Below are positions 43,416-44,057 of a stretch of 45,812 bases of DNA, one piece after another. Made by a program: the position numbers and the translations under genes. Each line of letters starts with the position of its first letter. Positions within the stretch are counted from its first letter, which is position 1. The notes beneath the pieces were generated by a model, which was given only the letters and a program-made list of their open reading frames with translations, did no database searches and was not told where the DNA came from. The DNA comes from a virus: the UHGV virus genome UHGV-0228494. One strand, 5' to 3'.

Positions 43416-43633
43416 ATCACCACCAACGGATTGCCCAGACCAGAACAGCAATGGCCACAATACGAATGGCAAATGCCATTGCCCGAATAAGTTCAGCACT
43501 CATCTTTTTAAAGTTCACGATTTCAGCGCAATGACCAGTTTTGCCAGCCCATACAGCATCGGAGACACAGCAATACCAACAGCCACCCACTTAATAGCAA
43601 AAGCCAGCGCTCTGCTGATGTCATCAGTCACTG

Positions 43634-43765
43634 TCACCCCAGCAGCCCCGACGAAGACAACATCACCCAGGCGAGGGACAGAAAAAGAGCAACCAGCATT
43701 AGTGAAAATGAAATACCGACAATCACACACAGGACCTTTGCCGGCGTTATGAGTTTGTCTGACAT
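43634..43765 (-). CDS. Candidate 43-aa single-TMD peptide (MSDKLITPAKVLCVIVGISFSLMLVALFLSLAWVMLSSSGLLG)
   Basis: Manual translation; SD-like AAGGGG 5 nt upstream of ATG; strongly hydrophobic core; between endolysin and Rz. Confidence 0.2.
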   Translation of the reverse strand: MSDKLITPAKVLCVIVGISFSLMLVALFLSLAWVMLSSSGLLG

Positions 43766-43767
43766 AG

Positions 43768-43863
43768 CTACCCCTTAATTGCCACAATTAACTGGGATAC
43801 TACCCATAAAAAAGGGATGCTCCAGACCAGCAAAAATTTCCAGTTTGGTAATTGACTAATCAT
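43768..43863 (-). CDS. Candidate 31-aa single-TMD peptide (MISQLPNWKFLLVWSIPFLWVVSQLIVAIKG)
   Basis: Manual translation of the C-terminal part of track ORF 43768..43980; the full ORF is unlikely because it spans the terminator hairpin. Confidence 0.15.
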   Translation of the reverse strand: MISQLPNWKFLLVWSIPFLWVVSQLIVAIKG

Positions 43864-43935
43864 GAGTCGCAACTCCCTAATCAGTTTGCTAAAATCAATC
43901 AAGGCAGCCTCCCATAGCTTACTGCCATAAAAACA

Positions 43936-43966
43936 AAACCCCGCTTGCTGCCAACAAACGGGGTTT
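43936..43966 (-). terminator. Bidirectional rho-independent terminator just downstream of the SAR endolysin
   Basis: Stem AAACCCCG / CGGGGTTT with 15-nt loop; T-rich runs on both strands (minus strand: TTTTGTTTTTAT). Confidence 0.5.
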
Positions 43967-44057
43967 TTACTTTTATTCACTTAGGTTTTGCCAGTTCACA
44001 GGACTTCGTGTTATCCGCCCGCGTTGGCCAACCTCATTTTTCAGCAAAATATTCTGC

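Follow-up and report, generated by a model that had tools for sequence, protein, structure and literature searches.

Small membrane-peptide genes inserted between the R and Rz lysis genes of Escherichia coli and Salmonella lambdoid prophages

Four peptide genes between R and Rz

The virus genome UHGV-0228494 (45,812 nucleotides [nt], the whole of which is called the window below) carries prophage lysis genes on its minus strand, and two of these, R and Rz, are separated by a gap of 642 nt at exactly positions 43416-44057. R encodes a SAR-type (signal-anchor-release) endolysin of 177 amino acids (aa) (44058..44591, minus strand; PF00959 [Phage_lysozyme], E = 9e-24), whose N-terminus, MNAKIRYGLSAAVLALIAAGAPAP, is Ala/Gly-rich and reads as SAR-like. 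Rz encodes the i-spanin (42921..43415, minus strand; PF03245, E = 4e-51). R and Rz form the upstream and downstream edges of the insertion, respectively. The gap contains an intrinsic terminator hairpin (43935..43967) and, downstream of it, four tightly packed open reading frames (ORFs) on the same strand, each encoding one single-pass hydrophobic peptide. All elements that the initial annotation had described here are present, on the minus strand, with corrected gene models; its interpretation of the peptides as lysis regulators or type I toxin-like peptides is partly supported.

The first gene, ORF-a (43768..43902, minus strand), most likely starts at the TTG at 43902 and encodes 44 aa, rather than the 31 aa read from the ATG at 43860. 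A GGGAGG Shine-Dalgarno sequence lies 5 nt before the TTG, and the extra N-terminus is covered both by the PHROG profile (PHROG 6632, E = 1e-12 for the longer frame) and by the homologue in Salmonella phage SPN3UB. The product has an amphipathic N-terminus and one transmembrane domain (TMD). ORF-b (43634..43765, minus strand; 43 aa, one TMD; PHROG 4906, E = 4.5e-21), which is annotated by the Prokaryotic Genome Annotation Pipeline (PGAP), begins 2 nt past the ORF-a stop codon and has an AAGGGG Shine-Dalgarno sequence 5 nt before its ATG. ORF-c (43515..43637, minus strand; PHROG 1115, E = 3e-24) encodes 38-40 aa from a GTG at 43631 or at 43637, where the GTG and the ORF-b stop codon overlap as GTGA. 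ORF-d (43417..43503, minus strand; PHROG 4493, E = 3.8e-6) is a short paralogue of ORF-c that encodes 28 aa with one TMD from the ATG at 43503. It stops one base before the Rz start codon (..IRWW-TGA-T-ATG), and its 3' end (TGGTGGTGA in ..IRWW-stop) carries the Rz ribosome-binding site. The c/d family is usually 48-60 aa long in full-length relatives (L027 and L056), and ORF-c and ORF-d of the window are 5'-truncated copies; the 28-aa form of ORF-d and its ATG are preserved in three diverged lineages. The initial annotation had proposed at least two short single-TMD ORFs (43 and 31 aa) and GTG-initiated hydrophobic frames upstream of Rz. The two ORFs are real and conserved, yet the number is four and the 31-aa ORF likely encodes 44 aa from TTG; a GTG start holds for ORF-c, whereas ORF-d starts at ATG.

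The peptides are 28-44 aa long with one TMD each, and the best 17-residue Kyte-Doolittle hydropathy was 1.9-2.8. Two to four residues follow the TMD in three of the four peptides and 16 uncharged residues in ORF-b, and the extramembrane parts do not exceed ca. 25 residues. PGAP carries three of the four ORFs as hypothetical proteins, all their PHROG matches (6632, 4906, and 1115/4493/3246) are labelled unknown function, and every database name for these peptide families is 'hypothetical' or 'membrane protein'. Searches of Pfam and NCBIfam at E <= 1 gave only chance-level matches far below the curated cut-offs for the four peptides. No paper on the function of these peptides was found in the literature.

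Coding constraint and mosaic distribution

We calculated pooled Nei-Gojobori ratios of nonsynonymous to synonymous substitution rates (dN/dS) using distinct DNA variants drawn from 87 loci. In the annotated frames, dN/dS was 0.23 for a' (the 138-nt a-type variants from relatives), 0.51 for ORF-b, 0.19 for ORF-c, and 0.29 for ORF-d, versus 0.82 and 1.48, 0.82 and 1.17, 0.89 and 5.78, and 0.81 and 1.55, respectively, in the other two sense frames. The form of ORF-a found in the window itself gave 0.80 (only four variants, recombinant). Variable sites ranked codon position 3 > 1 > 2 in a', c, and d. The 43-codon frame of ORF-b was stop-free in 16 of 16 DNA variants, one of which had a frameshifted C-terminus, although the stop-free test has weak power for such short ORFs. 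The short ORFs are conserved single-TMD coding genes under purifying selection, with dN/dS of 0.19-0.51 in the annotated frames. The initial annotation had named a lack of translation together with a non-coding pattern of conservation as the result that would overturn it, and the constraint found here is specific to the annotated coding frames.

The ORF-b family includes XECs191, which Huecker et al. (2017) described as a novel small gene in E. coli O157:H7 Sakai; it is a 933W-type variant with 65-70% identity. Its reported signals were 30.0 reads per kilobase per million mapped reads (RPKM) in RNA-seq and 12.6 RPKM in Ribo-seq (PMC5597208), and its ribosome coverage value (RCV, the ratio of ribosome-footprint to mRNA reads) was 0.43, with a predicted single inner-membrane helix (PMC5597208). 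XECs191 resembles ORF-b in lying immediately upstream of Rz and in the predicted inner-membrane location with one transmembrane helix, but an ant gene, not ORF-a, precedes it and no terminator hairpin lies upstream.

Several other frames were considered and rejected. Substitution patterns gave no consistent support to an alternative 33-aa ORF (43523-43624) or to a 123-aa ORF on the plus strand. A 90-aa TTG frame (phrog_3246) is probably an over-extended call of ORF-c, with no frame-specific constraint upstream of the ORF-c core; such constraint was also absent there for a 51-aa start given by PGAP.

A 721-base query (43380-44100) was 100% identical to prophages of strains of the sequence type 131 (ST131) type, such as JJ1887. 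Among 5426 complete E. coli genomes, 2090 contain sequence related to the gap, ST131 clinical strains included, and 587 of them have most of the stretch. We compared 79 R-to-Rz intervals, obtained from 80 IMG/VR loci fetched with Rz as bait and from annotated loci, and they fell into nine architectures. Some combination of the ORFs was present in 73 intervals: a-b-c-d as in the window (16 loci), an a-type ORF only (18 loci; 297-298 nt, 397 nt in SPN3UB), c-b (13 loci), b alone behind an ant gene (the 933W type, 9 loci), d only (8 loci; ca. 335 nt), c-d (6 loci), a-b (2 loci, in which an Ant-like gene is also present), and b-d (1 locus). A methyltransferase gene stands between the small ORFs and Rz in single loci of the c-b and b-d types. 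The remaining six intervals were empty, with R overlapping or abutting Rz, and the insert is also absent between R and Rz of the K-12 prophage Qin. The 90-nt spacer after the R stop codon (43968..44057, minus strand) is the left recombination junction common to most architectures; 933W-type loci share the first ca. 85 nt after the R stop and diverge beyond. The guanine-plus-cytosine (GC) content was 40-41% over ORF-a versus 52-56% in R. The ORF-b family precedes Rz in 933W and many other phages that carry Shiga toxin (Stx) genes.

Besides Rz as bait, DNA patterns were used to locate cassettes. Members of the c/d and a families turned up in further settings: in Salmonella, downstream of another holin gene and an endolysin gene of the P1-Lyz-like SAR type; in a module with two other holins, between an M15-peptidase or GH108 endolysin gene and one for a 60-aa lipoprotein; at prophage ends, where they follow genes for tail-fibre assembly and in some cases stand in tandem; and between baseplate-like genes. 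The pattern scan of genome contigs gave three matches only, none with a homologue of the query proteins. The usual order of a cassette is an A-run, the hairpin, a T-run, a short leader with a Shine-Dalgarno sequence, a one-TMD peptide gene, and the ..RWW-stop end (TGGTGGTGA). The hairpin lay upstream in 69 of the 80 a-type matches, and the ..RWW-stop end lay 1-8 nt before the start of the next gene in almost every cassette. The cassette seems able to sit between any two late genes while leaving translation of the second intact. These results indicate that the R-Rz stretch is an inserted mosaic cassette of a kind found at the joints of late operons in lambdoid prophages of E. coli and Salmonella.

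Terminator hairpin, probable read-through, and a predicted antisense RNA

The hairpin (43935..43967; 15 pairs, flanked by an A-run and a T-run) was the top terminator match of the region in a terminator scan that found 9 terminator-like sites versus 2.9 expected in shuffled sequences. Its folding energy was -24.7 kcal/mol as minus-strand (gene-strand) RNA and -15.3 kcal/mol as plus-strand RNA, with a U-run after both; since it is flanked by both an A-run and a T-run, it can terminate transcription in either direction. The stem was retained in ten E. coli and Salmonella variants with compensatory changes at 5 of 14 pairs, and the hairpin is therefore a real, selected structure. The bidirectional terminator had been placed directly after R; it lies 90 nt past the R stop codon, a distance that was 90 nt (89 nt in one variant) in nine of ten representative loci with the hairpin and 190 nt in SPN3UB.

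In a promoter scan of the window and five relatives, the interval from R to ORF-a contained no sigma-70-like sense promoter, and nothing conserved that would serve as a sense promoter was found within or after the hairpin. The hairpin itself occupies the space upstream of the peptide start, from which it is 25-95 nt away in the window and these relatives. A second terminator-like hairpin of 12 pairs with a T-run (45539-45567, minus strand) lies 40 nt upstream of the holin start, and in JJ1887 a Q-type antitermination gene is found 5.4 kb upstream of the holin gene in the same orientation. Q-modified RNA polymerase passes intrinsic terminators during lambdoid late transcription. A terminator upstream of the holin gene and hairpins within tail operons make sense only under Q antitermination, and we infer that the peptides and Rz/Rz1 are expressed by Q-antiterminated read-through. 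The two options given for Rz/Rz1 in the initial annotation, read-through or an own promoter, thus part ways: read-through is supported by the lack of a sense promoter in the scan and by the Q gene of JJ1887, whereas no own promoter was found and, since Q-antiterminated late transcription accounts for read-through, none is needed.

On the plus strand, an extended -10 motif, TGcTAAAAT (43887..43895), is a predicted antisense promoter by motif match and conservation. It is one of three matches to TGNTAWAAT in the window, both strands included, versus 1.3 expected, and it is kept in a' and SPN3UB a-type cassettes. An RNA of ca. 70 nt initiated there would extend from the ORF-a start codon to the hairpin and its U-run (43902..43975, plus strand). 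The predicted RNA, folded as 74 nt, has a 5' stem-loop with the anti-Shine-Dalgarno sequence CCUCCC in its loop, followed by the terminator (-20.8 kcal/mol, z -2.7), and is complementary to the ORF-a Shine-Dalgarno sequence and start codon. The ORF-a start region is probably covered by such a cis-antisense RNA ending at the hairpin, and its predicted layout resembles that of a type I antitoxin RNA.

A comparable arrangement was found in relatives. In four independent contexts, a consensus scan of c/d-type cassettes placed a candidate antisense promoter at the equivalent position, with a -35-like hexamer (TAGTCA, TGGACA, or TTGGCC) separated by 16-18 nt from TATACT. In an alignment of ten diverged c/d-type sequences, TATACTT was invariant and the stretch from it to the hairpin was variable. 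Two Salmonella tail-end cassettes were 57% identical overall; in 20-nt windows, the hairpin and the TATACTT island were the best-conserved parts (80-90%), versus 30-50% over most of the peptide-coding sequence. The window array lacks the TATACTT island because its ORF-c and ORF-d are truncated, and ORF-a carries an equivalent, the predicted antisense promoter TGcTAAAAT, instead.

The leaders of L019, L029, and L088, from the hairpin to the start of the long d/c gene, contain a conserved 8-codon mini-ORF, M(V/G/C)REV(L/Y)SL-stop, which ends in a TGA that overlaps the GTG at which the peptide gene begins, and a small AGGGA..TCCCT hairpin over the GGGAGG Shine-Dalgarno sequence. By this arrangement, they resemble the translational-coupling leaders of type I toxins. 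Three other candidates were set aside: a plus-strand promoter, CTGACA-18-CACAAT (43759-43788), is weak, and its -10 reads as not kept in the a-b junction of L068; rimP-leader Rfam matches on the hairpin were sub-threshold and taken as chance; and the prophage small RNAs Pas, AgvB, and AsxR map elsewhere, upstream of the holin gene.

Possible roles of the peptides and neighbouring features

The feature is related to known kinds of element, namely a type I-like small toxin, a moron, and an accessory lysis gene, and it is widespread in pathogenic E. coli. As the best explanation, which we hold with moderate confidence, we propose a late-operon insert that is read by Q antitermination, carries an antisense lock, and encodes accessory lysis or membrane peptides of the inner membrane. 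The terminator with A- and U-tracts on both sides is followed by four mini-genes of two or three families and then by the Rz ribosome-binding site, and the peptides and Rz/Rz1 would be made only when Q-modified polymerase from the late promoter passes the hairpin. From the plus-strand extended -10, the ca. 70-nt RNA would be made against the ORF-a Shine-Dalgarno sequence and start codon and would end at the same hairpin. In a lysogen, terminator and antisense RNA together would thus keep the peptides off, in a lock like that of a type I toxin-antitoxin system with antitermination in place of the toxin promoter. Late in infection, the peptides would enter the inner membrane, most plausibly perturb it, and, speculatively, assist or tune lysis. 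An accessory membrane or lysis factor is the favoured, putative function. HokW, an unrelated prophage toxin encoded by hokW-sokW of Sp5, is made on induction and aids lysis (PMC8621323), a precedent for such a role.

Several findings weigh against this proposal. The peptides showed no similarity to a known toxin, holin, antiholin, or defence protein in Pfam, NCBIfam, and PADLOC, and Rfam searches of the window region and seven related loci returned no known RNA. The predicted promoter motifs coincide with conserved codons and could thus have been preserved by coding constraint, and the sense strand forms the more stable hairpin (-24.7 versus -15.3 kcal/mol). ORF-d has no clear Shine-Dalgarno sequence, and ORF-c and ORF-d, being here without their native starts, may be poorly translated. 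ORF-b is the weakest coding case, its dN/dS of 0.51 being equal to that of one antisense frame; XECs191 gave a low Ribo-seq signal, which was obtained from uninduced cultures and to which multi-mapping may have contributed. Finally, relatives with the same R and Rz have no ORFs, so the cassettes are dispensable and any lysis role is accessory at most.

A possible, tentative extension is that the cassettes are mobile, self-insulated late-operon modules in which a membrane-active peptide would be kept off in the lysogen by a 5' terminator and a cis-antisense RNA and freed by Q antitermination alone. Peptide and antisense RNA would then form a threshold timer for the final steps of lysis and, with these, for the release of phage and Shiga toxin. 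Such modules would spread by plugging between any two late genes through translation restart at the ..RWW-stop end.

It is unlikely that the peptides are dedicated regulators of the pinholin/SAR-endolysin system, that is, an antiholin or a releasin acting on the S21-type holin, the SAR domain of R, or the TMD of Rz. The ORFs do form part of the lysis cassette, read in the same direction and with their translation linked to that of Rz, and the family recurs after two types of SAR endolysin. Like the holins and antiholins S21 pinholin and lambda S105/S107, the products are small membrane proteins that are encoded within a lysis cassette and made late. They differ in having no homology, dual-start motif, or charged cytoplasmic tail at the C-terminus, in being dispensable in relatives with the same R and Rz, and in occurring outside lysis cassettes, among tail and baseplate genes and after M15 and GH108 endolysins (SAR status unchecked); the true holin of this cassette matches PF04971. 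A membrane-tethered release factor for a SAR endolysin has a precedent in Mu gp25, a releasin of 99 aa with DUF2730 and a 73-aa cytoplasmic domain (PMC9239132). Like gp25, the window peptides would be accessory factors tethered to the membrane, with genes close to that of a SAR endolysin, but at 28-44 aa, with extramembrane parts of at most ca. 25 residues, they lack the N-terminal TMD plus ca. 70-aa cytoplasmic domain of a releasin, and none had a Pfam match, DUF2730 included. The antiholin-like role offered in the initial annotation is accordingly not supported.

Morons of lambdoid phages, in the definition of Juhala and Hendrix, include HK97 gp15, bor, and lom, and gp15 of HK97 is an example that blocks superinfection. 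That the peptides are lysogenic-conversion morons of this kind, inner-membrane proteins made from the prophage for host benefit or a superinfection block, is doubtful. The cassette resembles a moron as extra DNA between genes that are adjacent in relatives (the six empty loci and K-12 Qin), with lower GC, a mosaic distribution, small membrane proteins, and insertion at classic moron sites, and the tail-end copy L092 has terminators on both sides. A moron has its own promoter upstream and a terminator downstream; here no sense promoter was found in any architecture, a terminator takes up the only room upstream (a downstream one occurs only in L092), and the array runs into Rz with a 3' end built to restart translation of the next late gene. 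The RNA-seq and Ribo-seq signals of XECs191 from uninduced cultures would suit expression from the prophage, but they could stem from spontaneous induction.

A classical type I toxin-antitoxin addiction module, serving prophage maintenance or abortive infection and not lysis, is quite unlikely. All four products are hydrophobic, membrane-targeted peptides of <60 aa, and the predicted cis-antisense RNA would have its own promoter and terminator. The likeness to hok/sok systems (hokW-sokW, and hokD of Qin) extends to a prophage-borne single-TMD peptide of up to ca. 50 aa, a short cis-antisense RNA, here predicted, over the translation start, and, in relatives of the cassette, leader mini-ORFs and structures that sequester the Shine-Dalgarno sequence. 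Additionally, hokD is annotated in the same JJ1887 prophage. However, the peptides have no sequence similarity to hok products and showed no homology in Pfam and NCBIfam to the described type I toxin families (Hok, Ldr, TisB, Ibs, ShoB, Zor, DinQ, and others). Their mRNA has no promoter of its own in the window or five relatives, has the terminator upstream, and depends on antitermination; the genes themselves are arranged in tandem as part of the late operon, and their translation is coupled to that of Rz. The type I toxin-like proposal gains support from the predicted cis-antisense RNA, for which the bidirectional hairpin would act as terminator, but not from a toxin promoter or toxin-family homology.

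A recombination scar, consisting of a plain terminator and of chance or decaying frames that stay open only because Rz translation is coupled to them, would fit the truncation of ORF-c and ORF-d, the stops or frameshifts in relatives (L034/L035 and L030), the little power of the stop-free test at this ORF length, and the double use of the ..RWW-stop end as the Rz ribosome-binding site, but it is improbable given the frame-specific purifying selection, the conservation of the families between E. coli and Salmonella and across unrelated contexts, the Shine-Dalgarno sites, and the Ribo-seq support for the ORF-b family.

The cassette is a widespread yet unstudied add-on to E. coli and Salmonella prophage lysis modules, those of Stx phages included, and a clean example of small genes spreading among phages without upsetting translation of their neighbours. 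If the peptides tune lysis as in the proposed late-operon insert, they would be relevant to the timing of the phage burst and to the release of Shiga toxin. Should the antisense RNA prove real, it would represent a type I-like control module that relies on antitermination rather than a toxin promoter, and it would give a reason for a strong terminator inside an operon.

In the remainder of the lysis region, Rz1, encoding the o-spanin, is embedded in Rz (43010-43195, minus strand; lipobox LVVSAC, Pro-rich mature part). The S21-type class II holin gene (minus strand; PF04971) has its PGAP start at 45499 and an N-terminus of MYQMEK, and a gene of the DUF1327/YdfR family (44935-45279, minus strand; 114 aa, E = 7e-43) is inserted between the holin and endolysin genes. 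In JJ1887, hokD (2133-2288 of L339) lies ca. 8 kb upstream of the holin gene, outside the window. A 71-aa ORF (42709-42924, minus strand; PGAP hypothetical protein WP_000736382.1) whose start overlaps the Rz end had no family match in Pfam or PADLOC. An ORF of 90 aa (44697-44969, plus strand; PGAP hypothetical protein WP_000369850.1) runs opposite to the lysis genes between the YdfR-like gene and R and overlaps the 3' end of the former by 35 nt; Pfam and PADLOC searches with it were empty. A second extended -10 motif, TGGTAAAAT (44927-44935, plus strand), lies within it.

The R-Rz slot of relatives also holds larger cargo, comprising DNA methyltransferase-like genes, a 231-aa Ant/KilA-like gene, and the 933W ant gene (L026, 1114-1881; L028, 495-1430; L003, 1290-1985; L005, 1917-2486), and the slot is therefore a general insertion hot spot. 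In L099 (IMG/VR; ca. 150-330 nt downstream of the d-type ORF start), L108, and L174, the d-type peptide is followed by the 60-aa lipoprotein (phrog_7528; lipobox LLVGC, three Cys in the mature part). These modules have two holins (phrog_198 and phrog_217) and an M15 or GH108 endolysin; an Rz-like gene was not detected in them, and the lipoprotein may represent an uncharacterised outer-membrane step. In the Salmonella phages L007 (1807-1923) and L088 (ca. 2715-2810), a small hydrophobic ORF of 30-38 aa with a ..GWGW.. motif is found upstream of the hairpin, where it either overlaps the end of the SAR endolysin gene or comes after it.

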